Below are positions 11,006 to 63,527 of a stretch of DNA of 64,000 nucleotides, in pieces. The notes under the pieces are model-generated. The model was not told where the DNA came from. It did no database searches and was given only the letters and a program-made list of their open reading frames with translations. This DNA comes from an uncultured virus (IMG/VR IMGVR_UViG_3300034072_000228) (lineage: Duplodnaviria; Heunggongvirae; Uroviricota; Caudoviricetes). The first letter of the stretch is position 1. Every line of letters begins with the position of its first letter. The translations under genes and the position numbers were made by a program. Location: the IMG/VR virus record IMGVR_UViG_3300034072_000228; one strand, given 5' to 3'.

Positions 11006-11885
11006 TCAACCTCTTCTGCACCTCATCCCTAGCCTCCTCCCTAGGCTGCCACTCTATCTTCGGCACCTCCCCCATCGTCTCCGCATACCACCGCTTCGGA
11101 TCCTCCCATATCGGCCTCTCCTTTTTTTTCCTACCCCCCGTATGGGAACCCACTCCATCTTCCATGGGGGCCTCTTCCGAGGTAATTCCGCCCATGGGCG
11201 GAATTGTAGACTTTAGTAGGGGGTGGGGGTCTTCGTCGGGGGGATCCAAATTTTTTTCGGTGGGTACGTGTGGATTTGAATATTTATCAGAAGGTACGTG
11301 TGGATTATTGGACCTAGAGTCGCCCCTGCCCGCCCCGCCACTTTGTGCCCCCTCCCCCTGGGTGGGGTCGTGCGCCTCCACGTCGATAACACCTCCTAGC
11401 CTGGCGAGCTTCTCTCTGAGCTTGGCTGTGGTATCGCTTGCGCTTTGGTGCGTGACAACTGACCGAGTCTCGAATGCGCTCACGTCTGCAAGCTGTCCTA
11501 ACATGCGAAGGGCGCCGAGCCGGTCAGAGTCTTTTTTGGCAGTGCGAGCGATATGCTGGAGCTCATCAACAAGGAAATCTCTTATCCGCAAGGGGTTTTG
11601 CGAATACCTCAACCTCTGTATCCCCTCTTGCACAGCGATCGCTTGCTTCACGTCACTTCTCTCTGCTACTCGCCATGCTGCCGTTGTCGTACTGCGTGAG
11701 CTCCCTTGTGGCTCATATGCTTCGATGTAAGCATCTCTCTTACTTGCTCCCTCTGCTATAGCCTGGACAAATTGTTTTTCTTGTGGCGTAAGGCTTAAAC
11801 CCGGCGTAAGCACTTTATCGGCCGGTATGCCCTTCTGTAATGCCTTCAATGCTCTATCAGGCAGTGCTGCCCTTGCGCTTGCCAT
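10989..11885 (-). CDS. terS: Terminase small subunit with long disordered C-terminal extension
   Basis: LTPQEKQFV..G....AY..AY helix-turn-helix and DRLGALRMLG motif; first gene of the packaging operon. Confidence 0.75.
   Translation of the reverse strand: MASARAALPDRALKALQKGIPADKVLTPGLSLTPQEKQFVQAIAEGASKRDAYIEAYEPQGSSRSTTTAAWRVAERSDVKQAIAVQEGIQRLRYSQNPLRIRDFLVDELQHIARTAKKDSDRLGALRMLGQLADVSAFETRSVVTHQSASDTTAKLREKLARLGGVIDVEAHDPTQGEGAQSGGAGRGDSRSNNPHVPSDKYSNPHVPTEKNLDPPDEDPHPLLKSTIPPMGGITSEEAPMEDGVGSHTGGRKKKERPIWEDPKRWYAETMGEVPKIEWQPREEARDEVQKRLNDGLE
11182..11224 (+). repeat. Dispersed 43-bp element, copy 1 (palindrome AATTCCGCCCATGGGCGGAATT plus tail)
   Basis: GT-AATTCCGCCCATGGGCGGAATT-GTAGACTTTAGTAGGGGGT inside terS. 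Confidence 0.9.
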
Positions 11886-11915
11886 GCTTCCCTCATGAGA
11901 ACGAAATAAGAACGC

Positions 11916-11943
11916 ATTATGACCGTTTATCTGCCGTAGTCAA
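11916..11943 (-). promoter_or_regulatory. Possible sigma70 promoter for the terS operon
   Basis: TTGACT-16 nt-CATAAT on the minus strand, 30 nt upstream of the terS ATG. Confidence 0.45.
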
Positions 11944-11993
11944 CCTTACGTCAGCTAGAACCTGCCATTAGTCCATTTATACCCTTTACCCTA

Positions 11994-12022
11994 TTGCATA
12001 CAATATATGACAAGCCTATGAT
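11994..12022 (+). promoter_or_regulatory. Sigma70 promoter for the early plus-strand block
   Basis: TTGCAT-17 nt-TATGAT upstream of a GGAG RBS and the ATG at 12057. Confidence 0.65.
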
Positions 12023-12056
12023 GTATTGCATGTTCAATCACACCCTGGAGCACACC

Positions 12057-12263: not shown

Positions 12264-12333
12264 GAGCATAGCCCATCGCCCGGCGTGCCGGGTTTTGGGG
12301 TGTGCTTTTGCACCATAACCAGAGAGAACCAAT

Positions 12334-13365: not shown

Positions 13366-13531
13366 TCATGCGCCCTATCCCTTTGTGGCAATTCAACCCC
13401 ATCACGGGCTACTGGAAACTGGCTCGCATGTGCGACCCAGCCACAGCGCACCAATGGCTGGCAATTTATCAGCGCGACCATGGCGCCAACTTTATCGAAC
13501 TAACCCACATCAAACCAAAGAGAGCACCAAA

Positions 13532-14498: not shown

Positions 14499-14695
14499 AC
14501 CCTTACATCGAGATGAATGAAGGCATGGCCGAGATTCTAGCGGCCTTGCCTGAGCAATTCCAGCATCCCGGAACCGCCGCCGCCGCACTGGCTGCGGCTT
14601 TTGTCGTTCACTGTCGCGCATGGGGTATTGACGACGACACCGCGCAAACGCTTATCAGTGCAGCCCTAGCCGATTACACACTCACGAAGCATTGA
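14495..14695 (+). CDS. Early hypothetical protein
   Basis: ATGA coupling; ends overlapping the convergent primase gene. Confidence 0.5.
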   Translation: MNPYIEMNEGMAEILAALPEQFQHPGTAAAALAAAFVVHCRAWGIDDDTAQTLISAALADYTLTKH

Positions 14696-15448
14696 CCGCA
14701 CCGCACCAAGACCTGATCGCATATGCAAATCATTTGCATCCTCCCCAAGATTTGGACTCATGCACCACAACAAACCGCTCGCCTTCGCCACCCGTTGACC
14801 AGTGCCGCTCTCGTCATGATCCGCCACGATACGCCCGCCCGTAATCTTCGCCACATGCGCCAGATTACCCGCGCTGAAGCACACCACCACCCGCACGTCA
14901 GAAAACCGCAGCGCCGCCTGTACACTTAGCCCGGTAGCATAGCCCTCGACTAGCCACGGATCCCGGCCTCGACCAAGCACGAACACCGCGCCTTTCGCAC
15001 GCGTACCTGGTATGAAGCGCTTTTCACCACTGACTTGGATTCTCTGGGCGCCTACCACCCGCTGCGTGTTTATGTCCCGCATAGGTACGATCAGCTCTTC
15101 ACCAATCACTAGCCCCTTGGCGTCAGGAAATCCCTTGGCTTTTAGATAGGGATGCGTGGCCATGGTCGCCTTATTGATCAGCTCCTGCGCTTGCTTGGCT
15201 GCCCGTGCGTGCTTGATACGCTCTTCACTATCGTCAAAGTATTTGATGAACTGACTGACCTTCTCACCATACCGTGCAAACGATTCCATGGTTGCCCAGT
15301 TCTTCACCACTCCTGAGTTGCCATCAAAGATGTAAGCGCCATTCCTCTTACGTGGCTTATCTACCGTGGGTACGCGATGCCACCGGCCATCAGGTATGGC
15401 ATGGTTGATGATCAGACCATGGGCCTGTGCGTGTGCAACAAAGCTCAT
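14666..15448 (-). CDS. TOPRIM-domain DNA primase-like protein
   Basis: DGRWHRVPT..NGAY, HPYL..KG, LVEGYATGLS, VV.FSAGNL, ADHD.SG.G, DANDL. Confidence 0.85.
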   Translation of the reverse strand: MSFVAHAQAHGLIINHAIPDGRWHRVPTVDKPRKRNGAYIFDGNSGVVKNWATMESFARYGEKVSQFIKYFDDSEERIKHARAAKQAQELINKATMATHPYLKAKGFPDAKGLVIGEELIVPMRDINTQRVVGAQRIQVSGEKRFIPGTRAKGAVFVLGRGRDPWLVEGYATGLSVQAALRFSDVRVVVCFSAGNLAHVAKITGGRIVADHDESGTGQRVAKASGLLWCMSPNLGEDANDLHMRSGLGAVRSMLRECVIG

Positions 15449-15813
15449 GTGTTCTTCTCCTTCAAGGCTTGTTCAATAACTCGGGCAAACTTTTCTTCCG
15501 GCCCCCAGCAACTGTTAAACCCAATCTCCCGATCAATAATTTCTGATACTTCTTCATCCGTCAGCCCAACCCATTCTTTCTTTTGTGGTGCGGTGTACAG
15601 GGGTGACCGACCTTCGCCAGCAGATTTGTAAATGGTTCCACACCCTACTGCATCGAAATGCTCACGCACCTCATCAATCTTTACCCAACCCTCTACTGCG
15701 GTCCAATACTCAAACGGTTCTGTCTCCAGTGCTTGGCAGCAGTGCCCACACCGTGGACATTCAAAATCCAAATAGGACTTGTCCTTCTGGTACATGTTGT
15801 GATCCCCGCTCAT
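15445..15813 (-). CDS. Modular small phage protein with EWVGLTDEE module
   Basis: PLYT.PQ..WVGLTDEE..FAR.IE..LKEKNT; shares its C-terminal module with 20977-21261. Confidence 0.7.
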   Translation of the reverse strand: MSGDHNMYQKDKSYLDFECPRCGHCCQALETEPFEYWTAVEGWVKIDEVREHFDAVGCGTIYKSAGEGRSPLYTAPQKKEWVGLTDEEVSEIIDREIGFNSCWGPEEKFARVIEQALKEKNT

Positions 15814-15986
15814 ACCTTCCCCCCAAGTAATAACCTCAATGAATCCATGACCCAGTACTTCGGGCCCGTCGTTATCCCCGCGGCGATGCGCCAGATCGAT
15901 GACTGCGTTACACCAATCGACTTAGCAATCTGGTGATGCGTCATGCCCCTGGCCTCCAGAGCCCTCACAATTTCCTGTGGCGTCAT
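15810..15986 (-). CDS. Cro/XRE-like helix-turn-helix protein (58 aa, not in the ORF track)
   Basis: Manual translation MTPQEIVRALEARGMTHHQIAKSIGVTQSSIWRIAAG...GGKV; ATGA overlaps at both ends. Confidence 0.75.
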   Translation of the reverse strand: MTPQEIVRALEARGMTHHQIAKSIGVTQSSIWRIAAGITTGPKYWVMDSLRLLLGGKV

Positions 15987-17506
15987 ACCATCCTCCTTGC
16001 AAACTTACTCTTTGCATACTTGATGACCTGCTGCTTGATCTTGTTCTGCGTCACCATCCTGGGCTCCACATGAATAGCCTCGTGGAACTTCCACTTAGGC
16101 CAATCCCCCGTCAAATTCTTGTACTGAGCCTTGGCAAATCGCTCAGCCGCCGCAAGATCCCCGCGCTTTCTGTCCTTGCTGATCTGCACAATCTCCCACC
16201 AAACCAGCCGCTTGTCCGCCATCCAATCAGATGACTTTGTGCCGCCAAACTCCACCATCTGACCCTGCACCGAAAGCACATTGCTCATGGCCCTGCGCTC
16301 TGATCCACACGATGGACACACCCGGCCGCGGAACATGTACCCACAAGCCGTGCACTTGATCTCTGCCTTCTCCTTCTCAGTCGGCTCCTTGCGTACCTTG
16401 GCATCCAGCTTTCCGTCTTCCAGTTCCTGTACACCATGGGCAAATACTTCTACCTGATCCTCCCAGAACCGAGTCAGATTGCCTGCGTGATCTAACCAAA
16501 CCGCAAAGTCCTTTCCCGGATGCGGGCGCATGACCCTGCCCATCTGCTGAATATGGCCTGATAATGATTTTCTATATGGCCTTGCACATACACCGATTTT
16601 AATATCTGTAACATCAAATCCTTTTGCTAATGCTTCACAAGATATTAATCCGATTATCTCGCTGTCTGGTTTTCTGAACTCATCGATTAATTCCCTTCGC
16701 CGTTCGTTATTACCATCCTTATAACTGATCTGCTGAAAGTTATAACCCCTCTGTGCAAACTCTCTGCATAATTCCTCACCGTGTGCAACGGTTGCACTAA
16801 ATACAATGGTTTTAACTGGGCCGCCAAAGTTTTTATTCGTTGCTTGTACCCACTCGGTAACAATATCGCCAACGATCTCAACTCCTTGTTTTTCCATGTC
16901 TTTTTCTGCCCACTCGCCATCGAACTTAACCGCGGCGCCGCGCATATCCATCTCTGACTTCGCTACAAACATTTTAACTGGCACTAACCAACCGTCATTA
17001 ATTAGTTTATCGGTTGTTGTGCTGTTTACTACGTTGCTGAATATCTTTGATAATCCCTTGGTAAATGGCGTAGCAGTTAATCCAACAACAACAGCTTGCG
17101 GGTATTTATTAATAGCATCCGCTACAGATTTAAATACCGTATGGCATTCATCTATAACAATTAGTTTAGGCTCATTATCTATTTTGCGACGCGCTAATGT
17201 TTGTGCTGATATAACCTGCACATATTCATACGGACGCCAACGCCAGTGATCTGCCTGAATGACGCCGTGTGGTACGCCATACCTATCCAGTGTTGTGCTG
17301 GTCTGGTCTACCAGTGATACGCGATCGCATATGAACCAAGCTACATTCTGCTTGGCCCTTGCTTCGTTCAGTAGGTAGCTGGCAGATACAGTCTTGCCTG
17401 CACCCGTGGGCGCCACCAGGATCTGCGATCGATGCCCTTTGCGGACACCATCACGCAGTTCATCCAGTGCTTTGATTTGGTAGTCACGCAGACTTTCGAT
17501 CAGCAT
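15983..17506 (-). CDS. Superfamily 2 DExH helicase with zinc finger (RadD/YejH-like)
   Basis: LRDYQ, APTGAGKT, IDECH, GLTATP, QQMGRVMR, CxxC..CxxC. Confidence 0.9.
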   Translation of the reverse strand: MLIESLRDYQIKALDELRDGVRKGHRSQILVAPTGAGKTVSASYLLNEARAKQNVAWFICDRVSLVDQTSTTLDRYGVPHGVIQADHWRWRPYEYVQVISAQTLARRKIDNEPKLIVIDECHTVFKSVADAINKYPQAVVVGLTATPFTKGLSKIFSNVVNSTTTDKLINDGWLVPVKMFVAKSEMDMRGAAVKFDGEWAEKDMEKQGVEIVGDIVTEWVQATNKNFGGPVKTIVFSATVAHGEELCREFAQRGYNFQQISYKDGNNERRRELIDEFRKPDSEIIGLISCEALAKGFDVTDIKIGVCARPYRKSLSGHIQQMGRVMRPHPGKDFAVWLDHAGNLTRFWEDQVEVFAHGVQELEDGKLDAKVRKEPTEKEKAEIKCTACGYMFRGRVCPSCGSERRAMSNVLSVQGQMVEFGGTKSSDWMADKRLVWWEIVQISKDRKRGDLAAAERFAKAQYKNLTGDWPKWKFHEAIHVEPRMVTQNKIKQQVIKYAKSKFARRMV

Positions 17507-18302
17507 GTTTCTTCCAGTAAAGAACTTGTTTCTTCAGCTCGGCACACTCCCGCTGCCACTTGTCTCGGGCCTCGGTAAGGTTGTCGATCGTGGACTGCAT
17601 CTCTTTCATAACCTGGTAGTGCTCGGTATCCCTGAGTGCTGTAAGGATGGACACTTCCTTGGCCAGCTCTTGGTAGTTATCAAGGATCTCTTGGTACTGC
17701 TCGTTTAGTTCGTCATAAGCCACGCGCAGGGCTTCGTGTTTGTCTTGTGACACAGCTGACTTCAGGACCGGTTTAACGGGCGCTGGCGGCACGTTCTCTG
17801 GTTCCTCCTTGTCTACTGCCTTGATAGCCTCACGAAGGCTCATAGCCCCTTTCTTGACCTTCTCTATCACTTCCTTGTCGCCGGACTGCACAACCTTCTT
17901 GGCCCGCTCTACCGACCGCTCACCCACCCCGGCACGCTTAGCCATCTCTTTGGAAGTAATTCCGCCCATGGGCGGAATTTGATACTTTCGTAGGGGGGTA
18001 CCCACACCTGTCCATGTACTGCAAGTGACCACGGCCATGGCTTTTTGTGCTGGCGATAAGTGTCTTCGGTGCAGGTTCAGGTCCATGACATAGGACACAG
18101 GGTCTTGGCCATCAAACTCATGGAAGGATGGATTGATGTCTAGTTGTAAGCAAGCTTTGAATCGATGCCAGCCGTCCAAAATCTTGTTCTCGTACGTCGT
18201 TATAGGTTCACGCTGCCCATGGGCTTTGATGGATTCCAATAGGTCTTGGAAGTCCTCATCGGGCATGTCAGGGAATGCTGCTGATAACTGGTGTCTTTCC
18301 AT
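17484..18302 (-). CDS. parB: ParB-like protein (ParB N-domain, helix-turn-helix, coiled coil)
   Basis: L.ESIK.HGQ.EPI..ILDGWHR..AC..NL.RRHLS..Q; HTH KEMAKRAGVGERSVERAK. Confidence 0.85.
   Translation of the reverse strand: MERHQLSAAFPDMPDEDFQDLLESIKAHGQREPITTYENKILDGWHRFKACLQLDINPSFHEFDGQDPVSYVMDLNLHRRHLSPAQKAMAVVTCSTWTGVGTPLRKYQIPPMGGITSKEMAKRAGVGERSVERAKKVVQSGDKEVIEKVKKGAMSLREAIKAVDKEEPENVPPAPVKPVLKSAVSQDKHEALRVAYDELNEQYQEILDNYQELAKEVSILTALRDTEHYQVMKEMQSTIDNLTEARDKWQRECAELKKQVLYWKKHADRKSA
17956..17998 (+). repeat. Dispersed 43-bp element, copy 2
   Basis: GT-AATTCCGCCCATGGGCGGAATT-TGATACTTTCGTAGGGGGG inside the parB-like gene. Confidence 0.9.
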
Positions 18303-18322
18303 ATTTCTCTCTTAGTTGTTAA

Positions 18323-19296
18323 CGATCGATTACTTTGGTGCTCTTTGCTACTTTGACTCACTCTCATGCCATGGCTCTCTTCTTACTGGTGGTTCGTTCG
18401 GGTGAAATGGCTCTCTCGTGCCTAATGACTCACTCACTTGGGTTGGTGCTATCGGGGTACATGGTTCGTTCCGCTTCTTTGGTGCTCTCTTGCGTTTTTG
18501 ACTCACTCTGAAATCATGGTGCTCTCGCGATCTCTGGTTCGTTCTCTACTCGTGGTTCACTTTGGTCTTATGACTCACTCTCTTTCGGTGGATCTCTCAC
18601 AAACTGTGGTTCGTTCTGGCAGATTGGTTCCCTCTCTTTTTCTGACTCGCTCGGCCGAATTGGTGCTCTTGGCCAACTTGGCTCACTTCCCTTCCTTGGT
18701 CCTCTCGGGGTTAGTGGTTCGTTCCGTTTTTTTGGTGCTCTCGTTGCCGCTGACTCACTTGCCTTTATTGGTTCTCTCGCGGGGAATGGTTCGTTCTCGA
18801 CCTTTGGTCCTCTCTTTCTGAATGACTCGTTCTCGTGATTTGGTTCTCTTGATCGACATGACTCACTCTATCAACAGTAAAACTTTTAGTGGTCTTGGTT
18901 CGTTAAATAGTTATGGTGCTCTCACATCCAATGACTCACTCACTAACTTTGGTTCTCTTCCCGTTGTTGGTTCGTTCGTTGAAGTTGGTTCTCTCGACAT
19001 GCTTGACTCGTTCCACGACGATGGTGCGCTTAGCTCATGTGACTCGTTTGCCTGGGATGGTTCTCTCCTGTGTGCTGACTCGTTCGATTTCCTCGGTTCT
19101 CTCGATGCTCGTGACTCGTTCGAGCGAATTGGTTCTCTCGATCTTTTTGACTCGTTCATCTCATTAGGTGCTCTTCACAAAAATGACTCGTTCGAAATCA
19201 TTGGTTCTCTCAAGCGCCTTGACTCGTTCCTTCTGTATGGTTCTCTCAGCTACGGTGACTCACTCAGTCCATTTGGTTCTCTCCAAGTTCGCGGTT
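18323..19296 (-). ncRNA. TIGR-like (tandem interspaced guide RNA) array of 27 units of 36 nt
   Basis: 18-nt periodicity of two alternating ~10-nt repeats (sense GAGAG(A/C)ACCA and GAACGAGTCA/GAGTGAGTCA/GAACGAACCA) separated by variable 8-9-nt spacers; 974 bp = 27x36+2; begins at the stop codon of a Nop-domain gene. Confidence 0.9.
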
Positions 19297-20089
19297 AAAC
19301 AGGTGATGGTATGAAATGAGCATGGCCCAAGTGTGCAATCGGGTAAGGCAATGGCGGCTTCGTACCAAAGTGAGCTTCATACCAAGCGCCATGGAGATGG
19401 CTAAGGAAGAGCTTCACCGCATACCTTCTTGCTCGTGCATCAATCTGACCTGGTGGCAAGACACCATTGGATAGGTGCTTGTAAGCCTCAGTCGTCTTGG
19501 CTACTTTCTCTTTGAGTGTGGCTGCCAGCTCCTTGTTATCGCCACGCTCATTACGTTCAATCTCAAAGTTCTTACGCCCCCGGTATACATGACCATAGTA
19601 GCAGTCATCACGGCCAGAGAATTTCATAAAGGATTGACCAGCCTTCCAGCAAAGCGTCTTCAGCCCTGCATTCCATGGGCGCTTCTGTCCCTTCTCCCAT
19701 TTGCTTGTGGGATCTAATCCAGCATAGCGCCAAATATGTCCAACAGTAGGAGCCTTCTCAATATCAATGTGCGCTAACAGCCCCGCGGAAATGACCGGGC
19801 CGATGCCGACAATCTCACGCATCCATGCGCCCATCATGTGGTTCTGTGTGTAAACATCTAACGCCTTCTTGATCTGCCCTTCCAGCCCTTCTGATTGGGC
19901 CGCCAGCCAGCCGATCACAGCGTTAGGCTCATGCGATTCGTCCAGCGCCCGGACTTGGTTCGTGGAACGCTTACGGTCTTCTTGGGCGATGTAGTAGTAA
20001 TCGACCAGAAATCTTGCCTCGTCATCAGACAGGTTCGTGGCTGCGACTTTAAGGTCCTTGGTCAGTTTCATGATTGGTTCTAGGTTCAT
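19295..20089 (-). CDS. tasA: TasA-like Nop-domain RNA-binding protein (IS110 C-terminal-like, no RuvC or HNH domain)
   Basis: N-terminal coiled coil, IVGIGPVISAGLLAHI..HIWRYAGLDP, PWN..LKT, ARRYAVKLFL; no DEDD domain; abuts the dual-repeat array. Confidence 0.85.
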   Translation of the reverse strand: MNLEPIMKLTKDLKVAATNLSDDEARFLVDYYYIAQEDRKRSTNQVRALDESHEPNAVIGWLAAQSEGLEGQIKKALDVYTQNHMMGAWMREIVGIGPVISAGLLAHIDIEKAPTVGHIWRYAGLDPTSKWEKGQKRPWNAGLKTLCWKAGQSFMKFSGRDDCYYGHVYRGRKNFEIERNERGDNKELAATLKEKVAKTTEAYKHLSNGVLPPGQIDARARRYAVKLFLSHLHGAWYEAHFGTKPPLPYPIAHLGHAHFIPSPV

Positions 20090-20325
20090 AGTGTTCTCGC
20101 TAGGTTGAATGGATCGTGCCAACTAAATTCTTTATAGGTGTAAAGCAACTGGTTAAATCTCATGGGATGCTTGGTTGCTACAACACATCCCAGCCCTACT
20201 AAAACTCTCATACGCTCTGCCGCTGTGGTTCTGCTCACGCCAAAGTGTTTTGCTACTTGCTCCGATGTAAAAGGTTCTTTTTGTTCCTTGGCCCATGCTA
20301 GATATGTCTCATCGATTGGTTTCAC
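20086..20325 (-). CDS. Winged-helix/HTH protein
   Basis: GTG start with GGAG RBS; FTSEQVAKHFGVSRTTAAERMRVL. Confidence 0.65.
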   Translation of the reverse strand: MKPIDETYLAWAKEQKEPFTSEQVAKHFGVSRTTAAERMRVLVGLGCVVATKHPMRFNQLLYTYKEFSWHDPFNLARTL

Positions 20326-20560
20326 TGTCTCCCCTTGCTCGTATGGCTTCAGCGCACATCGCTGCAAGCCCCTTTGTGTAATACTTTTGAAAAACTTCTT
20401 GCCGTTCCTCGCACACCTTCGCACACGCCTCACGCTCATGTGCTGCAACAAGTGCGGCGAAGCGTTCAAACACAGGGGCAAGATCACGCTCAACCCATGT
20501 CATATGGTCAAACATTGCACCAGCCTCTCTCGCCATCTTGATAATGTCGTCTCGGTTCAT
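20309..20560 (-). CDS. Small phage protein, IIKMAREA/HEREACAK paralog 1
   Basis: Shares modules with 20557-20787 and 21258-21464. Confidence 0.75.
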   Translation of the reverse strand: MNRDDIIKMAREAGAMFDHMTWVERDLAPVFERFAALVAAHEREACAKVCEERQEVFQKYYTKGLAAMCAEAIRARGDSETNR

Positions 20561-23434: not shown

Positions 23435-23435
23435 G

Positions 23436-27560: not shown

Positions 27561-27843
27561 AAAAGCTGATAAAGCGCACATGGATCGCGTCGCAAGTATT
27601 GGGTGCATCCTGTGCAAACACCTAGACCTTGGAGCGACCCCTGCTCAGATCCACCACATCCGGGAAGGCCAAGGTATGAGCCAGAGGGCTAGCAACTTTC
27701 TGGTGGTTCCTTTGTGCCCAACCCACCATACCGGAAGCCCTGGCGTCCATGGCCTTGGCGAGAGAGGGTTCTATACCCGCTATAAGCTTAGCGAGTTAGA
27801 CCTTCTTGCCATGACCTTGGAAGTACTTCAATCCTCTAAGTAA
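27553..27843 (+). CDS. Ref/DUF968-like HNH-type nuclease
   Basis: GCILC..AQIHH...G.G..PLCPTHH. Confidence 0.75.
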   Translation: MTKKADKAHMDRVASIGCILCKHLDLGATPAQIHHIREGQGMSQRASNFLVVPLCPTHHTGSPGVHGLGERGFYTRYKLSELDLLAMTLEVLQSSK

Positions 27844-30800
27844 ACTGTCTTCTCAAGCAACTCAGGGCGCTTGGCGCTAACAATAATCCCTTTCTCAGCA
27901 CGCTCTGACATCCGCTCACGTTGAGCAAACGAACGCTTGATCTTCTTTTCATCAATTTCATTACCAGGATTCTTGCTGCTGTATCGGATGATCTGCTCAC
28001 CAATATCATCCATCTCTTCATAGTCACCGCTCTTGTAAGCTAAGAACAGTTTTGACAGGAGCCTTTGCTCACGCTGAGCCAGTTGCTTATCAAGACTCTT
28101 AATCTCGCCCATGGCCTCGTAGCCACGCTGAAGATCCTGTGGCGTAAAGCCAAGTGACTGAGCAAAGACTCCCCACAACCCTACGTTTGGTACGATTGGA
28201 TCGCCACGCAAGGTTGTCGCACCCTCATGGTAGAACCTCCAGGCTTTGAAGAAGTCCTTCACAACAGGTGGTGACATCTCTTCCATACCTCTTGCGTAGT
28301 GACCTTCATTGATCTTCTTGATGCCACCAGCCACGTTAAGAACAATGCCTGCCGCCGGCCCAAGCATGTCGATCAGCATATTCTTGGCCCACTCCTCCTC
28401 ATCCTTAGCCATGGCGTCATCACGGAACCAGAGTCCATTGAGGTTAGCAAACCTGCTTACATCAACTTGTAAGATCTCTGACATTGGTCCTTTACTCAGC
28501 GCCCGTGACACGTTGTCACCAAACGCATTTGCCATAGCAACCTTTAGTTCTAGGCTGAAGTCATAAGGATCGTCTTCATCATCAAAGATAAGGTTCATAA
28601 CGCCTTCAATGATGTAGTAAAACGGCAGACCTTCATAACCTGCAAAGAGCGCTGTCATGCCCATAACACCAGTCAGACGCTTCCTTGCAGCTTTCTTGAT
28701 CCTTGTTAGTTCATCGTACTCACGCTTGGCAGCATATCGTTCATCCTCTGATAGACCTTTGTCTTGCGACTTCAGTAGCAGTGCATTCAACTCACGCGTA
28801 TTGGGGAGAGAATCCTTAATTGCCTGTGCGATGAAGGCTGTCATCTGCTGCGCGTAGTTCTTGAACTGTAGCGTTACCTGTGCAATCGGATGACGTAAGA
28901 ACCTAGCCTTAGTTTCTTTTGCATACTCAAAATGAATCTGGCGAATCATTTCTCTTGCGAGCTGTATCGTCTGGGCTTTATTCATCCCCTTGGATTGAGC
29001 AAGCCTAACCACTGCAAGTGCTGTAACTTGGCGGTTTGCAATTTCTGCCAGATTAAATCCATAACCAAGAATCATGGACGCCTTGTCAAGGACGCCCAAC
29101 GACTTTGACTTAAGGATGCTCTTAAAGCCGGTCGCATATAAACCACTCGGGCGTTCAGCTAAACCAGCCAAGGAAAGCGTTTGAGTCTGATTTGTCAGGC
29201 CTTCAAGCTCTGACATGATTTCGGCTTCTTCCTTAAGCTTTGCAGATCCACTCGCCTTGGCTTGTTTTTCTAACATGCCTATCAGGTCATACTGCGCCGT
29301 GCCTTTTTTCCTCGATGACTTTAAATCTGAAAAGGCTTTGAAGATTTCCTTGCTTGCCCTTGCAAACGAAACATCAAACTCACCTGCAAGTGTTGGTATC
29401 CCAATGACCGGCGTTTGGATTAAGTTACCAAGAGCAGAAGCAGGAGCGGTCAAGTAATACAAAAACGCAAAGTTTGTAATCTTTGACCAAACTGGGTGCA
29501 CATCCTTTGGATTGCTGAAGTCAGAATGCTGTGCCTTCAACTCCTGCAAGTAACGGTCACGGGCAATATTCCTTACACCCTTTTGTGAATCAGAGTACCG
29601 CTGCGCCTCACTGATGATGGCATCTAGCGTGGGGCCATACTCCATTCTTGCTAGGTTGTACGCACTATGGAATGCTGAATCAGCAAATGCACGGCGCATA
29701 TCAAGCGTAGCACCGGCAACCTTCTTGGCGTGAATAAAGTTCTTCTGTACAGACAACTCAGGAAGCATGGACAGGTAAGCCTGATACACATCATCCTTAA
29801 GCCTGTTCTTCAAATCCATCGCCCGGCCAGCGGAGTCTGAAAGCGTTGGCTGATCAGTCTTATCGATGGCAGCAAAGATCTTATTGATGAAGGCAGACTT
29901 GATGACGCCCTCGGTGAAAAGCTCTTTGGTATCTACACCACTCTTGAGGTTGATGATCTTGCCGCTTGCTACATCCTTGGCAATACTTTCCTCATGCTTG
30001 CGAAGGTCGGCCAAGGATTCAAACATCTCTTGGTACGGTTTCGTCCCGCCATTAGGTAGTTTGATGTTGTAAGCAATAAAGTACTGACCAAACCTGCTAA
30101 GAGGAAAATACGGACCTTCGCTTTCAAACTTCTGGAACTCATAGTCCAACTCACGCAAACTCTTGGCGCGTTCATTAACGTCCGTGATCTTGGTGGTGAT
30201 GATCCTCTTAAGAATCTCCCTCTTATCATTAAGCTGTTTCTTGTAGAAATCACGAAGCTCCTTGAAGATCGTTTCGCCTTCCGTGCCCTTGATCATCTCC
30301 CAGTTCTTACGGAAAGATTCACTCTTGATCTTTGCTTCTTTCTCAGGAATCGTTGGGTCAATGCCTGACATACGGGCGTCTAGGATTACCTTATCTAACG
30401 CTTCACCCAGCTTAGGATTTTTGTCAGCCCACTGGTCCCACTTCTCACGAAGCTTGCTTGCGGTGGTCAGTTTTTTATCCCTCTCTACCATCATCTGGTT
30501 TAGCACATCGTAATACTGACGTACCTGCGGCAGGTCTTTCTTGGCTAGCTCTGCAATCTGTCTGAGGTTCAGGAACTGCAATAACGTCTGAGCGTTATCT
30601 GCCGTCGCATCCTTAACGTATTGACCAAGCTTTTCCTTGGCAGCCGCAAAGGACGGCGTGTCCTTGATCATCGTATCCATGGACTTCATGCCTTCAGCAG
30701 GCGTGTCATCAATCTTGTCTACGGCGTTGAATAGATCTTGCTGCTCTTGTGGAGATAGATCCTTACCGGCGTCAGTTAATCCTTCAACGCTACGGCGCAT

Positions 30801-33800
30801 GTATTGGATTTCAGTGTCGCTTGGCTCTAGCTGATCTTTCATGAACAAAGCCATCTGGTCCTTCACACCCAGTGGCTTAGCTTCTACGCGTACAGGGGCT
30901 ATGTCTTTGACACTAGCCGTAACCTTATCCATGTACTGCTTAAAGGTTTCATTAGGCAGGTACTTTTGATTGCGTACCTTGGCGTAAAAGGATTTCAGTG
31001 CATCTGCAAGACGCTTGAAGAACCTCTCTACTACCGTCAGTGGCTTCTCGGATGTCGTTGCCCAACGTGATACTTGGTCTGCGTACCACTCGCCAAAGCT
31101 CTTCCAATAAGGAGTTAGATCCTCAAACTTGGTCTTCTCTCCGGCCTGCGTAGTCTTCCCAACACCTCGCGCCCGCATGGACTCGATGTAATCCTTGGCC
31201 GATTTGCCCTTAGAGGAATTCAGAAACTTATCAAACTCATCACGTATGGAACGCTGCGTTGCAAGATCTGCATTCCTGAATGACTCACGCTCATGGATGT
31301 GGCCAAGCTCATGGGCCAATGTCTCTAGCATCCGCGTAACTGATGCGTCCTTGGTAAAGGCTATGTAGTAATTACCATCGGGCATCTTCCTCATAGACCC
31401 AAGGTCATCACTAAGCGCAGCCGAACCGATCGTGCGATGCGGCCCTGTGAACTTACCGCGATTGGCAACTATATCGTCCATGGTTGTGACATAGACGCCC
31501 TGAGGAATCTTAAGAAGTTTCTTCCATCCTGCAATCACACCAGCCAGTTCTGGCGATATGCTTTGCGACATTGCGACACCATCGGCATCAAACTTGATGA
31601 ATGGTGATTTGTCATGCAGAGCTTTGTCTTTCTTTTCAAGCGCTTCCTTGGCCGCAACTAATCTCGCCTTTTGAGGCGCATTGATTAAATTGCCTGTGTA
31701 ATTCTCTACGTCTGTGCGCGAACGGAAAGACCCATTGGCAACTACGTAAACAGGGTCGCCGGTTAGTAAGGCATGTGCCCGGATGAGTGCAAGATCCCCG
31801 TCCTGCCACACCACAACCCCACCCAAATTATCTGCATGAGTTTGCGATGTTTTAGACTGGCCTGCCGTAGCCTTCATCATCGGCTGTGCACGGCGCTCTT
31901 CCAGGTCAGCTAGCGCCTGCTCTATCTCTTGCCGGTTCTCTTGGAAGTACGCATAAGCCTCATCTGTATCAGGCAACGTCTTGTCCATCATCTGCTCGGC
32001 ATAAGACTGAGGCGTATAGGCTACTTCAACTCTGGCAGCTTCACGTTCAGGTCTGGCAGCTTCGCTAGGTTCAGCAACTCGTTCTTCGCCTTCGGGGATA
32101 GCTTGTTCCACTTGCTCATAAACAACTCTTTGCTCATCGGCAGCTTCCGCGGCTTCAAGATTGGCTTCAAGTTCACTGCGAAACTCCCTAATCATGGTTA
32201 ACACTTCGTCTAGCTTGAGATCTAAATCAGCAAGCTCAGCCTTCGTTGTATCGCTTACATAATCAAAATTCAGGATGCGGTCTTTGAGGTACTCAACCGC
32301 CTCGTTTTGCTTCATCTTCTGGTCAAAGACATCCGCTCTATCAACCGCTACAGATGAGTATTCACCAAGCCATGGGTCCAAGAGCCCGCTCACAACAGCC
32401 TTATCAAGGTTCTTGTCAGACTGTGTTTTGCGTATATCCGCCACGTCCTTGGCGCTTACTCCAGCCTTCTTGAGCGCATTCAGGAATGTATCGCCTTGTG
32501 ACTTACGCTTGCGCTCCCTAGCCTCGACAGCTTCCTTTTGTGTCGCTAGTTCACCAGCCTGCTTCTCTAGTTCAGCTATCTGCTCTGTGATCCTTTGATC
32601 CTCTTCGCTTAACGGCGCCGGACCTTCCATGGGAGGAGGCTCAACAAACTCTGGCGGCCCTACCACTTGTTCAGCAACTGCTGGCGGCGCTGCTAACTGA
32701 AGCGTTTCTGATGGCGGCACAGGAATGCTTGTCTCGGCAGATGGCGCTGCTTTTTGAGTAGGTTGCACAGCAGCCGCCTGCTCTTCCCCTAATCTCTTTT
32801 CTATTGCCGGTGCATTGTTGGCGTAAAACTGCTGATCCTCGGGTGTTGTACGAGGAACACCAGCCATAATGTCCGCAACAAATTGCTCGAAATACTTCTG
32901 GTCAACCGGTGTTTCTGTGAAGATTTCGGGCGGCACTTGATAGCCAACACTTGAAGGAGTTGGCGTAAGTGCTTGATCTGTAACGGGTGGGGGGGTAATT
33001 CCGCCCACGGGCGGAATTTGATACTTAAGTAGGGGGTCTGTCGTTTCAGGCTGTGTAACTTGTGGCTCAGCAACAGTGGCTTGCTGAGGTGGCGCGGGTT
33101 GTTCAACAGGCTGTTCAACAGGCATACCGAGACGCTGTATACCTCTGCCAGCCGCACCTAATGCGCCACCGCTTATGGTTCCTGTAAGGCCAGCCTCGAA
33201 ATATTCCCGCAGCCGCTTTGGCGAAAAGAGTTCGTAGTTTTCATCAACATACTTGACTGCAACATTTGACAAAAACTCCTGAGCCGCCTCAGTTAAACCT
33301 TCTTTGGGCGCCGTCTTAGCAGCAGCTAGTCCGATGTCTTTGGCAGCTTCTTTAAATCCAGCACGCTTGGTCATTTCTTCAACCATCTTGGCGCGACCAA
33401 ATCCACCAAGCTTGTTTAGGAATGATGCAGGTGCAACAAGATCAAGGAATGTCTGAAAACTTGCTGCGACAGATGCGACACCTGGACGTAGCTGACCGGT
33501 TTCTTCAAGAACCTTGGAGAATGTTTCAGGAGCGTTTAGCGCGTAGCCTCCAGCACCAGCCCCACCAAGGGCAGCTCGTTGGGTGACTTGGGCAGCACGT
33601 GCAGCGCCAGCAGATTCAGCAGCCGCAGAAGACAAACCTCTGGCAAGGGCAGCTTCTGTAGCAGAGGCTCCAGCCCGTGCAGCAAGACCTCGCGCACCGG
33701 CAGCAGCAACTCCTCCAGGTAAAAGCATAGCAAGTCCATAAGGCAAGGCCTCCGCAATACGCTCATAACCAAAGCCAAGAGCGGATAAAGGACCCGTCAC

Positions 33801-34118
33801 ATCCTCTGAGGACTGATACATACGGGGAAGCCTTTCCTCCCGTTCTGCATATTCCTGCTTGGCTTCTTCCATCAGGCCACGTGCGGCAACATCTTGGCCG
33901 ATCGCAGCAAGCCCCATGGCGGGCAACTCTTTGCGGATGGACGTACCGATATTCTCAAATGTTCTCTGAATCGGGCGGAATGCTACTTGGGATGTGGAAT
34001 ACTGAGGCTCCTGCCCGTATTCCATCTGCATACCGCGAATGATGTTTTGGTAATCCTGTGGTTTTAAACCTTCAGGAAGTCTTACCGCACCATACCCAGG
34101 AACATTAAAGACTGGCAT
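27828..34118 (-). CDS. Large polyvalent or ejection protein with zincin metallopeptidase and PLxRFG-type region
   Basis: 2096 aa, last gene of the virion operon; LAHELGHIHE..EWYADQ; YFPLSRFG. Confidence 0.75.
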   Translation of the reverse strand: MPVFNVPGYGAVRLPEGLKPQDYQNIIRGMQMEYGQEPQYSTSQVAFRPIQRTFENIGTSIRKELPAMGLAAIGQDVAARGLMEEAKQEYAEREERLPRMYQSSEDVTGPLSALGFGYERIAEALPYGLAMLLPGGVAAAGARGLAARAGASATEAALARGLSSAAAESAGAARAAQVTQRAALGGAGAGGYALNAPETFSKVLEETGQLRPGVASVAASFQTFLDLVAPASFLNKLGGFGRAKMVEEMTKRAGFKEAAKDIGLAAAKTAPKEGLTEAAQEFLSNVAVKYVDENYELFSPKRLREYFEAGLTGTISGGALGAAGRGIQRLGMPVEQPVEQPAPPQQATVAEPQVTQPETTDPLLKYQIPPVGGITPPPVTDQALTPTPSSVGYQVPPEIFTETPVDQKYFEQFVADIMAGVPRTTPEDQQFYANNAPAIEKRLGEEQAAAVQPTQKAAPSAETSIPVPPSETLQLAAPPAVAEQVVGPPEFVEPPPMEGPAPLSEEDQRITEQIAELEKQAGELATQKEAVEARERKRKSQGDTFLNALKKAGVSAKDVADIRKTQSDKNLDKAVVSGLLDPWLGEYSSVAVDRADVFDQKMKQNEAVEYLKDRILNFDYVSDTTKAELADLDLKLDEVLTMIREFRSELEANLEAAEAADEQRVVYEQVEQAIPEGEERVAEPSEAARPEREAARVEVAYTPQSYAEQMMDKTLPDTDEAYAYFQENRQEIEQALADLEERRAQPMMKATAGQSKTSQTHADNLGGVVVWQDGDLALIRAHALLTGDPVYVVANGSFRSRTDVENYTGNLINAPQKARLVAAKEALEKKDKALHDKSPFIKFDADGVAMSQSISPELAGVIAGWKKLLKIPQGVYVTTMDDIVANRGKFTGPHRTIGSAALSDDLGSMRKMPDGNYYIAFTKDASVTRMLETLAHELGHIHERESFRNADLATQRSIRDEFDKFLNSSKGKSAKDYIESMRARGVGKTTQAGEKTKFEDLTPYWKSFGEWYADQVSRWATTSEKPLTVVERFFKRLADALKSFYAKVRNQKYLPNETFKQYMDKVTASVKDIAPVRVEAKPLGVKDQMALFMKDQLEPSDTEIQYMRRSVEGLTDAGKDLSPQEQQDLFNAVDKIDDTPAEGMKSMDTMIKDTPSFAAAKEKLGQYVKDATADNAQTLLQFLNLRQIAELAKKDLPQVRQYYDVLNQMMVERDKKLTTASKLREKWDQWADKNPKLGEALDKVILDARMSGIDPTIPEKEAKIKSESFRKNWEMIKGTEGETIFKELRDFYKKQLNDKREILKRIITTKITDVNERAKSLRELDYEFQKFESEGPYFPLSRFGQYFIAYNIKLPNGGTKPYQEMFESLADLRKHEESIAKDVASGKIINLKSGVDTKELFTEGVIKSAFINKIFAAIDKTDQPTLSDSAGRAMDLKNRLKDDVYQAYLSMLPELSVQKNFIHAKKVAGATLDMRRAFADSAFHSAYNLARMEYGPTLDAIISEAQRYSDSQKGVRNIARDRYLQELKAQHSDFSNPKDVHPVWSKITNFAFLYYLTAPASALGNLIQTPVIGIPTLAGEFDVSFARASKEIFKAFSDLKSSRKKGTAQYDLIGMLEKQAKASGSAKLKEEAEIMSELEGLTNQTQTLSLAGLAERPSGLYATGFKSILKSKSLGVLDKASMILGYGFNLAEIANRQVTALAVVRLAQSKGMNKAQTIQLAREMIRQIHFEYAKETKARFLRHPIAQVTLQFKNYAQQMTAFIAQAIKDSLPNTRELNALLLKSQDKGLSEDERYAAKREYDELTRIKKAARKRLTGVMGMTALFAGYEGLPFYYIIEGVMNLIFDDEDDPYDFSLELKVAMANAFGDNVSRALSKGPMSEILQVDVSRFANLNGLWFRDDAMAKDEEEWAKNMLIDMLGPAAGIVLNVAGGIKKINEGHYARGMEEMSPPVVKDFFKAWRFYHEGATTLRGDPIVPNVGLWGVFAQSLGFTPQDLQRGYEAMGEIKSLDKQLAQREQRLLSKLFLAYKSGDYEEMDDIGEQIIRYSSKNPGNEIDEKKIKRSFAQRERMSERAEKGIIVSAKRPELLEKTVYLED
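32995..33037 (+). repeat. Dispersed 43-bp element, copy 3
   Basis: GT-AATTCCGCCCACGGGCGGAATT-TGATACTTAAGTAGGGGGT. Confidence 0.9.
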
Positions 34119-52523: not shown

Positions 52524-52524
52524 T

Positions 52525-53501: not shown

Positions 53502-53750
53502 TTACCTCTTAGCTGTCAGCGCCGACTTGCGAAATGCTTCTGCCGTGGGCGCACCTTTAGCACCAGGCTTTCTCATTTTCTCACCCGATCCTGCCGCAAT
53601 ACGCTTACGCTTGGCATTAATATTGGCGTATAACCCGACCTCGCCGCCCTGCGCAAACTGCATAAAGTCGGTGTTATCACGTCGGGATTTTAATTTGGCC
53701 TTGGGCATTTTGGAAGGGTTGATATCCCCCATTCCCCTGCTTTTCATCAT
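53502..53750 (-). CDS. Small basic virion-region protein
   Basis: SRGMG.I.PSK..FAQGG..GLYANI.AKR.R..GSGEKMRK.G.KGAP. Confidence 0.7.
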   Translation of the reverse strand: MMKSRGMGDINPSKMPKAKLKSRRDNTDFMQFAQGGEVGLYANINAKRKRIAAGSGEKMRKPGAKGAPTAEAFRKSALTAKR

Positions 53751-62226: not shown

Positions 62227-62240
62227 CGTTCAACCAACTA

Positions 62241-62531
62241 TTAAGCGCAACCGCCTTTGTTCATCTTGACCATCTTTCCCTTGGTCTTTCCTTTTGTAGC
62301 TACACCATTGATACTAGGCGCGGCTGTTTTTACAGCACCCATTTTCTTGGGCATGACCGCACCACCATCTTTATAGCCAGCCATCTTCTTTGCAGGTTTC
62401 TTTTCCATTGATCTTTGCTCCGATAGTCCAATTGCAATCGCTTGCTTAGGGTTAGTTACTTTCTGGCCCGAGGAAGACTTAAGTTTACCTTCCTTGAACT
62501 CTTTCATTACGACGCCTACCTTGTCTTTCAT
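62241..62531 (-). CDS. Small basic virion-region protein
   Basis: KV..VM.EFK.GKL.SSSG.KVTNPKQAIAI.LSE; YKDGG and MNKGG. Confidence 0.75.
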   Translation of the reverse strand: MKDKVGVVMKEFKEGKLKSSSGQKVTNPKQAIAIGLSEQRSMEKKPAKKMAGYKDGGAVMPKKMGAVKTAAPSINGVATKGKTKGKMVKMNKGGCA

Positions 62532-63481
62532 ATATACCTTCCGCGGGTCTTGCCACGCTTTGCAATACCATCACCACGGCTAGAAGCAGATCCTACCTTA
62601 CCGCCGCGCTTCATACCCATCTCAATCACATCATCACTACGGCTGGATCCGCCAAGCTGTCTACGCTTATTAGCTTGTGTCTCAAGCCTTGCTTTACCCA
62701 TGTTCTTTTCAAATGGAAGCCGACCGCGTGGTGACTCTAACTGAGGCATGGACTCACGGCGCTTTACCAAGTCCTTCCCTTTGGCGGCAAGTTCTCCACC
62801 TCTTGTAGCCAAATCACCGCCACGGATAGCTACCTCAGCACTCTTTGCAGCTTTTTGTGGTACCGTAAGAGCTTTTGCCGCCTCCTGCGGAATCCTTGGC
62901 TCAACCCTGGCTTTTGCTGCTTGCGGTGCTAGCTTAGCTGCTAGTCCAGCCCCGGCAGCTTTTAGACCCTTCAATAACGGTCCACCTACAAGATTCATCT
63001 CTGGCGTCACGCGCTCAATGGGCTTGTCATAAGCTTTCAGCCGCTCAATCTCAGCCTTTACATCTTTCTTATCAGAAGGTTTGATCTCTGCTTTAGGCGC
63101 TGCTTTAGGTGCCGCCCTAGGAGTTTCTGCCTTTACCGCGGGTTTTGTTGCAGTCTTTGTAGGCGCACGGCTAAATCCTGCTGTGCTTGGCTCAACTAAC
63201 TCTGTATCACCTTTTGCCTCTATACGGGGTTTAGTCATGATAGGGCTAGGCGTGGCAACACTTGTTTCGGCCCGTGGGCCTCTTAGCATCGCCTGGTCCA
63301 TGGCCGCAGCATCTCGTGCCTCGCGCATGGCAATTCCCATGGCACGGTCTTTGTCTGCGCCACCTGACATTACCGCTTCACCAGAACTAGAGCGAACAAT
63401 CTCTCCGCTGCTATCCCTTAGCGGCTCCCGATCAATATCCGGAATATCACCGCCCTCTTGGAACCGCCTGCGCTTCTTCAT
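62528..63481 (-). CDS. Ala/Lys-rich virion-region protein
   Basis: FQEGG and MKRGG; C-terminal RGDGIAKRGKTRG. Confidence 0.75.
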   Translation of the reverse strand: MKKRRRFQEGGDIPDIDREPLRDSSGEIVRSSSGEAVMSGGADKDRAMGIAMREARDAAAMDQAMLRGPRAETSVATPSPIMTKPRIEAKGDTELVEPSTAGFSRAPTKTATKPAVKAETPRAAPKAAPKAEIKPSDKKDVKAEIERLKAYDKPIERVTPEMNLVGGPLLKGLKAAGAGLAAKLAPQAAKARVEPRIPQEAAKALTVPQKAAKSAEVAIRGGDLATRGGELAAKGKDLVKRRESMPQLESPRGRLPFEKNMGKARLETQANKRRQLGGSSRSDDVIEMGMKRGGKVGSASSRGDGIAKRGKTRGRYI

Positions 63482-63484
63482 ACT

Positions 63485-63527
63485 ACCCCCTACTTTAGTA
63501 GCAAATTCCGCCCATGGGCGGAATTAC
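63485..63527 (-). repeat. Dispersed 43-bp element, copy 4 (inverted relative to copies 1-3)
   Basis: Minus strand GT-AATTCCGCCCATGGGCGGAATT-TGCTACTAAAGTAGGGGGT; fills the intergenic gap. Confidence 0.9.

Follow-up and report, generated by a model that had tools for sequence, protein, structure and literature searches.

A dispersed 22-bp palindrome is the predicted DNA site of a ParB-family protein encoded in the TIGR-TasA operon of an uncultured tailed phage

The stretch of 64,000 nucleotides analysed here (the window, IMG/VR record IMGVR_UViG_3300034072_000228) derives from an uncultured virus of the Caudoviricetes and represents a tailed phage with a genome of about 63 kb, as judged from a PHROGs scan of 67 open reading frames (ORFs), 35 of which were also scanned with Pfam. 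It carries four copies of a 43-bp element, composed of a 22-bp palindrome and an oriented tail. We consider it likely, with a probability of roughly 0.75, that the palindrome is specifically recognised by the ParB-family protein that the phage itself encodes (17484-18302), in whose gene one of the copies lies. The palindrome is predicted to be the site of this protein because the site and the helix-turn-helix (HTH) of the protein covary among relatives.

Results

The 43-bp element and its copies

The palindrome AATTCCGCCCATGGGCGGAATT occurs without mismatches at 11184-11205, 17958-17979 and 63504-63525, and with one central mismatch at 32997-33018; none of 100 dinucleotide-preserving shuffles of the window gave any match to it. 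The whole unit consists of GT, the palindrome, 4-6 variable bases and the tail ACTnnnGTAGGGGG, and in an alignment of the four regions similarity among the copies ends sharply at both borders of this unit of about 43 bp. The tail motif has four exact matches, all beside the palindrome, and a lone match with two mismatches elsewhere is within chance expectation.

Copy 1 (11182..11224, plus strand) has a perfect palindrome and lies antisense in a 298-aa gene (10989..11885, minus strand) that occupies the position of the small terminase subunit (TerS); there it is read as HPLLKSTIPPMGGIT. Copy 2 (17956..17998, plus strand) is antisense in the ParB-like gene, where it codes for the loop directly before the HTH. 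Copy 3 (32995..33037, plus strand), the one with the central mismatch (CACG), is found in a linker rich in Pro, Gln and Thr within a 2096-aa DarB-like gene (27828..34118, minus strand). Copy 4 (63485..63527, minus strand) is inverted and intergenic, between the genes at 63524-63787 and 62528-63481; it supplies the TAA stop codon of the former, and its G-run is 4 nt before the ATG of the latter. The genes that contain copies 1-3 are all on the minus strand, antisense to the element, and read it in one common frame, as HPLLKSTIPPMGGIT, TPLRKYQIPPMGGIT and DPLLKYQIPPVGGIT, with the consensus (H/T/D)PL(L/R)K(S/Y)(T/Q)IPP(M/V)GGIT. The common orientation of the coding copies is forced, because the element in plus orientation has stops in all three frames, as against one of three in the opposite orientation; their common frame is a mild, 1-in-4 coincidence.

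The original prediction, which was made from the sequence of the window, had listed four copies with three inside genes and one inverted between genes, had reported IPP(M/V)GGIT in three unrelated proteins, and had put copy 2 just before the HTH of a parB-like gene. All of this is borne out, by the palindrome search with its shuffles, by translation of copies 1-3, and by an AlphaFold2 (AF2) model in which the HTH helices span residues 117-124 and 128-140. It had also assigned copy 1 to terS, of which the location in that gene stands and the label does not: the 298-aa protein has no family match in PHROGs, Pfam and NCBIfam scans, and the name reflects its position beside the large terminase gene (TerL), nothing more.

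A consensus promoter scan between 10.5 and 19.5 kb placed no promoter beside copies 1 or 2 and gave five promoter-like sites in all, against 7.8 expected. Copy 2 has a single palindrome and no iterons, and its surroundings to about 80 bp lack an AT-rich tract. Around copy 1 there are C- and G-runs (CCTACCCCCC upstream, GGGGGTGGGGG..GGGGGG downstream) as well as T8 and T7 tracts (11131-11140 and 11225-11247), and a terminator-like hairpin lies beside it on the plus strand at 11227-11247.

Versions of the site in related phages

A scan of IMG/VR viral contigs for the exact palindrome gave 15 matches. All 15 carry the tail, and they lie in the TerS-position gene, in the ParB-like gene, in the giant gene or at the intergenic position of copy 4, the four contexts seen in the window. 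In one genome for each of 185,579 prokaryotic species just two matches were found, both tail-less and in unrelated contexts, which rules out a host-derived repeat family. Protein-guided searches added 11 ParB loci and 54 TerS-position loci, and with a profile of the element diverged versions were recovered from these same locations. Five larger related records (G002-G006) were compared, among them G002, which has 63,090 bp and is rated complete. The two ends of G002 (1-166 and 62925-63090) are a 166-nt overlap with one mismatch, and therefore its five element matches represent four sites. The element in the giant gene stops about 1-20 nt short of the contig end, so that the assembly may be circular or permuted, with its break next to the repeat.

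Each lineage has its own version of the palindrome, and this version is uniform across the four to five sites of each genome. The window has CCGCCCATGGGCGG, the four sites of G002 have CCGCCAGCTGGCGG / AATTCCGCCAGCTGGCGGAATT, the four to five sites of G003-G005 have TAATTACGCCACGTGGCGTAATTA, all with A at ±7, and the four sites of G006 have AACTCCGCCACGTGGCGGAGTT; TAATTACGCC is the version of the site with C to A at ±7. Lineages with ParB-like proteins of about 63-92% identity to that of the window have the sites at conserved positions. Some element copies in G003-G006 are without the tail, and G003 and G006 have an extra site, not present in the window, in the linker of the Erf gene. The original prediction had proposed to look for the motif, and for its covariation with the ParB HTH, in relatives of the phage; the motif scan thus finds the element at the same four positions, in lineage-specific versions.

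The central tetranucleotides of the four versions (CATG, AGCT, ACGT and AATT) are all self-complementary, and arm changes are symmetric. As the loop of a hairpin needs no self-complementarity, this points to a duplex dyad for a dimeric protein. Perfect palindromes of at least 16 bp number 3-5 per genome, against 0.3-0.85 expected, and belong almost entirely to this element family. At greater distance, among ParB-like genes of less than 50% identity, a palindrome with a half-length of at least 9 is found in the stretch before the HTH in 15 of 62 cases; L143, which belongs to these 15, is in fact 57% identical. Control windows gave 19 of 599 (odds ratio 9.7, p = 3e-8).

Other perfect palindromes also occur at conserved places in the relatives, namely ACCTCAAGCTTGAGGT, CGTGCAACGTTGCACG and the 22-bp TCTTTCAGAAGCTTCTGAAAGA (G003 9317-9332; G004 8916-8931 and 18510-18525; G005 6286-6301 and 16429-16444; G006 26496-26517). 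These may be sites for other proteins.

The tail as a separate module

The oriented 19-nt tail is a module separate from the palindrome. Its mean pairwise identity is 0.86-1.00, compared with 0.45-0.91 for most flanks and 0.81-0.92 for the palindrome when versions are mixed; the palindrome is not more conserved than the flanks because it differs between lineages. In the TerS-position gene the tail is read in two frames, as PLLK in the window and as PYES in the G003 type, because of a one-base difference in the spacer, and it is therefore either kept at the DNA level or renewed by copying. In the TerS-position copy of the G003 type (type C), tail and flank (..CTTTCGTAGGGGGTACCC) match the ParB copy of the window's lineage. 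This common stretch argues for copy-and-paste between sites, a process that would account for the uniform centres as well.

Covariation of the palindrome with the HTH

Among 5.8 billion proteins searched, 219 are related to the ParB-like protein (E <= 1e-10), and the best 120 of them were aligned. In closer relatives the loop before the HTH always contains (I/T)(P/T/V/R)(P/S)x(G/D)(G/V/T/R)(I/V), which is the translated palindrome, and among the best 120 of the 219 relatives variants of this loop peptide accompany particular residues at the start of the next helix. DNA was fetched for 80 metagenome and 63 viral loci; 138 of the 152 sources examined have an ORF with LDGxHR. The covariation set comprises the 62 of these 138 loci that have both the HTH pattern MAK[h2]AGVG-x1-x2-(S/T)-(V/I)-x5-RAK and a 22-bp dyad with at most three mismatches, and which reduce to 47 unique proteins. 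The remaining 76 loci, mostly distant homologues and truncated genes, were left out of the counts. Half-sites are numbered from the dyad centre.

Among the 47 unique ParB genes, x5 is Glu with all 34 sites that have C,C at -7,-6 (CC..GG) and with none of the 13 others, where it is Gln (with ACGCC, GTGCC and TGGCC), Ser, Thr, Val or Asp. Residue x2 is Arg with all 41 sites that have G,C at -5,-4 (GC..GC) and with one of the six others; in the remaining five it is Lys, Thr, Ala or Ser. Preferences of Arg for G, Glu for C and Gln for A are classical amino acid-base preferences, and the pairings observed here fit them. The base at ±9 and the last residue of HTH helix 2 (h2) are only weakly associated, with one of two contrasts.

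On a maximum likelihood tree built with the loop and the HTH masked, x5 changes together with the arms in five of five independent contrasts on well-supported branches (seven over all branches), and for x2 three to four of four contrasts are concordant, with none opposite. Sister pairs show the same at close range, the covarying residue being among three differences in 170 compared positions in L119/L138, 3/165 in L126/L019, 5/256 in L021/L109, 9/253 in L020/L019 and 14/147 in L125/L140; the products of these chances are about 1e-6 per residue, for pairs that were hand-picked. The rule for x2 recurs in a group of about 37% identity, in which ..CCCGAT.. goes with Ala (L169 and L178) and ..CCCGGC.. 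with Arg (L183). The covariation sought in relatives is thus positive.

Across three palindrome versions (four distinct rows), the TerS-position protein keeps its N-terminal 57 residues unchanged except at two variable positions. Because these residues are near-constant while the palindrome changes, the TerS-like protein is an unlikely reader. The residue-level comparison covered the ParB-like and TerS-position proteins.

The ParB-like protein

The proposed reader (17484..18302, minus strand, 272 aa) corresponds to the TasParB of TIGR-TasA operons. An N-terminal ParB/Srx domain with DGWHR and LNLHRR is followed by a disordered loop that leads into the HTH, and the C-terminal part (residues 186-271) is a coiled coil; the protein thus combines the ParB/Srx domain and HTH by which members of the ParB family are recognised. 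The codons of HTH residues 117-140 are at 17883..17954 on the minus strand and include R129 (x2), which covaries with ±4/5, and E132 (x5), which covaries with ±6/7. In the AF2 model (mean predicted local distance difference test score, pLDDT, of 69.6) residues x1-x5 open the recognition helix, which is the second helix of the HTH (128-140), two long C-terminal helices span residues 186-271, and residues 97-114, which the element encodes, are disordered with pLDDT below 50, in the loop (102-116) that directly precedes the HTH. The top Foldseek matches of the model are all Spo0J, Noc, ParB and KorB structures, including 1vz0, 7nfu and 6t1f, over about 170 columns with E from 2.4e-3 and a probability of 1.00. 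PHROG ParB-like families match the protein at 1.7e-13 and 3.5e-13. An alignment with Noc 7ng0 (E of about 1) shows GERRWR replaced by GWHRFK and ENLQR by LNLHR, and DGWHR and LNLxRR are invariant in 23 relatives.

No ParA/SopA-type ATPase is recognised among the 67 ORFs by PHROGs, nor among the 35 of them scanned by Pfam. PF13614 is absent from all four related phage records searched, including the complete G002, and was detected in 14 of 14 control genomes. With no ParA found, this is therefore unlikely to be a classical partition system. The suggestion of a parS-like ParB site in the original prediction accordingly stands in part: a ParB-family protein with a palindromic site is what the covariation points to, and the likeness to partition fails on the lack of ParA, and GERR appears to read GWHR.

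The TIGR-TasA operon and the SF2 helicase

Upstream of the ParB-like gene is a dual-repeat TIGR array (18336..19283, minus strand) of about 26 units of 36 nt, in which 10-nt repeats alternate with 8-9-nt spacers. The array is in two blocks, with a 27-nt break at 18869-18895, and its strand is predicted to be minus from the repeats, which end in CCA/TCA on that strand. Next to it is a gene for a TasA-type TIGR-associated protein (19295..20122, minus strand, 275 aa), which is labelled "transposase" by PHROGs and leaves no room for an N-terminal nuclease domain. This protein matches NCBIfam NF052498 with 218 bits (cut-off 100, E = 1.3e-64) and is present in four of four relatives. An origin of the element from an insertion sequence or transposon is ruled out, the "transposase" being this conserved TasA.

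The order on the minus strand, with tasA (19295-20122) followed by the array and the ParB-like gene (17484-18302), matches that given in the passages used from the Methods of PMC12045711. All the features by which a TIGR-TasA operon is recognised are present, namely a Nop-type Tas protein, a 36-nt dual-repeat array and a parB-like gene in the operon. Array and TasA were missed by the original prediction, and they change the context of the element. The plus-strand ORFs at 18438-18821 and 18822-19298 are artefacts of the array. A 36-nt autocorrelation upstream of the ParB gene is found in 46 of 129 loci, which are in essence those of the close clade, with a single distant relative besides.

Downstream, the end of the ParB-like gene is overlapped by a gene for a superfamily 2 (SF2) helicase of the ResIII/Helicase_C type, similar to RadD/XPB (15983..17506, minus strand), and the last gene of the same minus-strand operon encodes a Toprim primase-like protein (14666..15448, minus strand). 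This SF2 helicase also comes next after the ParB-like gene in 36 of 60 distinct cases (73 of 104 loci), and the pair is kept without the array in relatives at 33-45% identity. A complex prediction for the ParB-like protein and the SF2 helicase scored 0.00, which counts neither way. In L019 and L118 a cytosine-methyltransferase-like gene (start MKYLSVCSGIEAA...) lies between the ParB-like and helicase genes, and in L111 and one more locus the helicase P-loop APTGAGK runs into CLAKDTPIL..., an apparent intein insertion in the Walker A motif.

The tail, at about 18 nt, has the length of two spacers, but targeting of it by tigRNA is rejected: spacer matches to it do not exceed chance, the best being a single 9-mer with one mismatch, of which about 0.5 are expected by estimate. 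Spacer pairs in any orientation gave 5 matches, against 2.7 expected, in the phage's own and related genomes. Pairs on opposite strands gave 10 against about 3.7 when summed over six genomes, each genome being within its shuffle range; an example of such a near-match is at 37060-37080.

Other features of the phage

The structural and lysis genes recognised with PHROGs and Pfam are those for the large terminase, portal, major head protein, endolysin and tail proteins. DNA-handling genes encode, besides the ParB-like protein, the SF2 helicase and the Toprim protein, an Erf-type annealing protein, an exonuclease and a RusA-like resolvase. No integrase, protelomerase or repressor module was recognised in the PHROGs scan of the window ORFs. 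The GC-skew profile is monotonic and tracks gene strand, and so gives no origin signal. The INPHARED phage collection holds no close relative at the DNA level; by TerL the nearest isolates, at 47-57% identity, are the Pelagibacter phages HTVC027P/023P and phages of Planktothrix/Synechococcus.

Two giant proteins are encoded, one of 2096 aa (27828-34118), with a DarB-like C-terminal part and an LPD39 domain, and one of 2849 aa (53677-62226). The latter has short HTH_3/HTH_26/HTH_31-like segments near residues 519-547, 574-604 and 1074-1109, which are unusual for a giant, presumably virion-associated protein; its orthologues in relatives are only about 30% identical. A 2-oxoglutarate-Fe(II) oxygenase gene between TerL and the TerS-position gene (10283-11005), an HNH endonuclease gene (52032-52595) and a 211-aa ORF (41809-42444) are without counterpart in the five related records, and a homing-endonuclease-like gene (1524-2516) is common to the window and G005 only. 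All four are probably recent insertions.

Discussion

Proposed mode of recognition

Under the proposed reading, the ParB-like protein would dimerise through its C-terminal coiled coil, with each HTH reading one half-site. Arg129, at position 2 of the recognition helix, would read the G:C pairs at ±4/5, and Glu132, at position 5, the C:G pairs at ±6/7, whereas the central 4 bp would be read by neither. One site would lie in the protein's own gene, before the HTH codons, and the others in disordered linkers or between genes; confinement of the coding sites to a single frame that yields a Pro/Gly peptide would let the DNA signal coexist with coding. Site sequence and protein specificity would have changed together in each lineage, with ectopic copying keeping the copies of a genome alike. 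The sites may be parS-like landmarks without ParA, from which the protein would serve the co-transcribed machinery.

As to what that service may be, if the protein does bind, it could tentatively mark start or loading points for the SF2 helicase and primase in replication, by analogy with phage initiators, although we would put this at less than an even chance. Action together with a TasA-tigRNA complex appears unlikely, though it deserves to be kept in view; bearing on it, the spacers match neither tails nor genome convincingly. A regulator or organiser comparable to KorB or Noc seems somewhat less probable still, and partition of the plasmid type is very improbable.

Several points weigh against the palindrome as a site of the ParB-like protein. 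All the support for binding is comparative, the computation covering sites, conservation, uniformity and covariation, and the effect that would follow binding is inferred. Dispersal of the sites is clade-specific, as the palindrome is single-copy in the distant ParB-like phage records G007-G010 and G012. In L112 the sites have CCGTCC and x2 is nevertheless Arg. The sign tests are at their floor, with p = 0.0625 for five of five contrasts, and the sister pairs were chosen by the analyst, with double use of L140, L019 and L109. Linkage inflates the raw association, as only about 12 codons separate the site from the HTH within one gene. The centre of the palindrome and the tail track no HTH residue, and because of this their uniformity within a genome calls for a different explanation, for example gene conversion or a second factor. 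Family assignment by sequence is weak: TIGR00180 gives 23 bits (4.2e-5) where the cut-off is 58, and Pfam ParB_N, detected in 13 of 23 relatives, does not match the protein of the window. Finally, the covarying bases also alter residues of ParB's own loop. Coevolution within the protein is excluded on the sole ground that the sites of the same genome outside the ParB gene follow the same arm version, as seen in G003-G005, where all sites have A at ±7, and in L032, where the TerS-gene site has GTGCC.

Alternative explanations

If the element were a structural hairpin in RNA or single-stranded DNA, working independently of the ParB-like protein as a terminator, processing site, mRNA stabiliser or cruciform, one would expect the 9-bp stem that each copy can form (z of -2.1 to -3.8 against shuffles), the compensatory nature of the arm changes in relatives and the intergenic place of copy 4, where intercistronic hairpins are common. 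We nevertheless hold this to be the least probable of the alternatives. The 4 nt equivalent to the loop are self-complementary in four versions, in imperfect copies C.A is as frequent as G.T whichever strand is considered, which favours neither as the transcribed one, three copies run antisense to their genes and the fourth sense, and no T-run follows the stem; moreover the stems are modest, an Rfam search gave no match, and covariation with the HTH would be left unexplained. Hardly more probable is a selfish miniature palindromic insert, similar to Rickettsia palindromic elements (RPEs) or miniature inverted-repeat transposable elements (MITEs), which spread into linkers and is merely tolerated there. 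The sharp borders of the 43-bp unit, its place in frame in disordered linkers of unrelated proteins, the gain and loss of sites (for example in the Erf linker of G003 and G006) and the stretch of tail and flank common to two sites, which indicates copying between them, all agree with such an origin, although copying between sites fits recognition by the ParB-like protein as well. The positions are conserved across lineages with only 4-5 copies per genome, the species genomes hold just the two tail-less matches, there is no transposase, and the HTH covariation argues for selection on recognition.

Two further alternatives keep the palindrome as a protein site. It could belong to another phage protein: the TerS-position protein, which would make it pac-like, a 135-aa HTH protein (20086-20493) or a 122-aa protein (15445-15813). 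Pac sites often lie in the TerS-position gene, which is where copy 1 is found, and several small putative DNA-binding proteins, 30-50% identical between the window and G002, could carry the specificity. The chance of this appears small, given that the N-terminal part of the TerS-position protein stays near-constant through three palindrome versions, that the changes in the ParB HTH are few, specific and chemically sensible, and that the palindrome in the ParB-like gene recurs in distant relatives without the context of the other genes. Similarly improbable are true centromeres of a plasmid prophage of the N15 type, bound by the ParB-like protein and moved by ParA. A ParB-family protein with palindromic sites would suit this, as with SopB of N15 on IR1-4 (10.1101/862136, in the passages used), but there is no ParA (67 ORFs; PF13614 in none of four relatives and in all 14 controls), no integrase, protelomerase or repressor module is recognised, and GERR appears to be replaced by GWHR. 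We therefore retain the ParB-like protein as the predicted reader, without a partition partner.

Comparison with known systems

The pairing of a ParB-family protein with a palindromic site is already known. The IR sites of N15 are scattered among phage genes, and one parS of B. subtilis lies in spo0J itself. As in Spo0J/Noc/ParB-parS systems, an N-terminal ParB/Srx domain is followed by an HTH and goes with a palindromic site; unlike in those systems there is no ParA, the site has 22 rather than 16 bp, the C-terminal coiled coil is long, three of the four sites are in coding linkers, and GERR/ENLQR read GWHR/LNLHR. A few HTH residues can switch the specificity of ParB/Noc proteins, according to excerpts from PMC7383237. 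N15 has four separate IR sites (IR1-4) bound by SopB, as described in the part of 10.1101/862136 consulted; here too there are four separate palindromic sites for the phage's own ParB-family protein, whereas SopA and a linear plasmid prophage state are features of N15, neither of which is seen here. KorB of plasmid RK2, a ParB-family protein with multiple dispersed palindromic operators (OB) that acts at a distance, differs, as far as the passages used from PMC11790492 go, in having a CTP clamp, the partner KorA and a role in partition, where the protein of the window has an apparently diverged CTP motif, mostly intragenic sites and no known KorA-like partner.

A comparable set of palindromes in phages without parA, within the text passages of PMC4351075, is found in Cluster O mycobacteriophages, which have 17-bp dyad-symmetric palindromes in multiple copies and a protein with a ParB-like domain; its authors expect the sites to be bound by a dimer and to do something other than control promoters. 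The Cluster O repeat is unlike the present element in having a different sequence and an NNN spacer, and those passages link no reader protein to it. RPE/MITE-like selfish repeats also differ from the element, which has 4-5 copies at conserved positions and just two tail-less matches in species genomes. Among phage initiators, lambda O with ori and SPP1 G38P (oriL in gene 38, with a distant oriR) have an origin in their own gene. The element resembles these in that a site lies in the linker-coding part of the binder's gene, a helicase gene is next to it and there are extra distant sites; it is unlike them in having a single palindrome, no iterons and no AT-rich tract, and a helicase that is SF2 and not of the DnaB type. 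An initiator of the ParB family would be new.

The parB-like gene in the tasA operon has been named tasParB by Faure et al. 2025 (PMC12045711), a study which, in the passages used, describes the same operon of parB-like gene and tasA with an array between them, a predicted C-terminal dimerisation and a phage host. TIGR-Tas systems were described in 2025, and their natural role, above all for nuclease-free TasA and its ParB-like partner, is open according to these passages; they give no DNA site or function for TasParB, the supplement and fig. S14 lying outside them. Relative to that part of the TasParB literature, the cognate palindrome, its placement, the recognition residues and the link to an SF2 helicase beyond TIGR-bearing phages are newly proposed here. 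Our literature search did not find in print a ParA-less set of sites, sites in coding linkers, covariation that can be read off, or the link with TasA/TIGR and an SF2 helicase.

Significance

A more specific proposal, which is rather doubtful at present, is that the palindromes are the cis element of the TIGR-TasA/TasParB system, with TasParB loading on 4-5 "self" landmarks and cooperating with TasA-tigRNA and the SF2 helicase. If this were true, the phage chromosome might be coupled to RNA-specified targets, for tethering, exclusion of competitors or guided control of replication, and the lineage versions of site and HTH would be incompatibility or identity types among co-infecting relatives.

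The predicted site of TasParB, its reading residues, natural specificity variants and four mapped positions give a concrete handle on TIGR-Tas. The element shows how a protein-binding DNA signal can persist in coding sequence, through disordered linkers and a single Pro/Gly frame, and how a family of sites can drift in step with its reader over a virus lineage. The recurrence of the ParB-like gene and SF2 helicase gene as a pair with an in-gene palindrome suggests a widespread and uncharacterised module for DNA transactions in phages.

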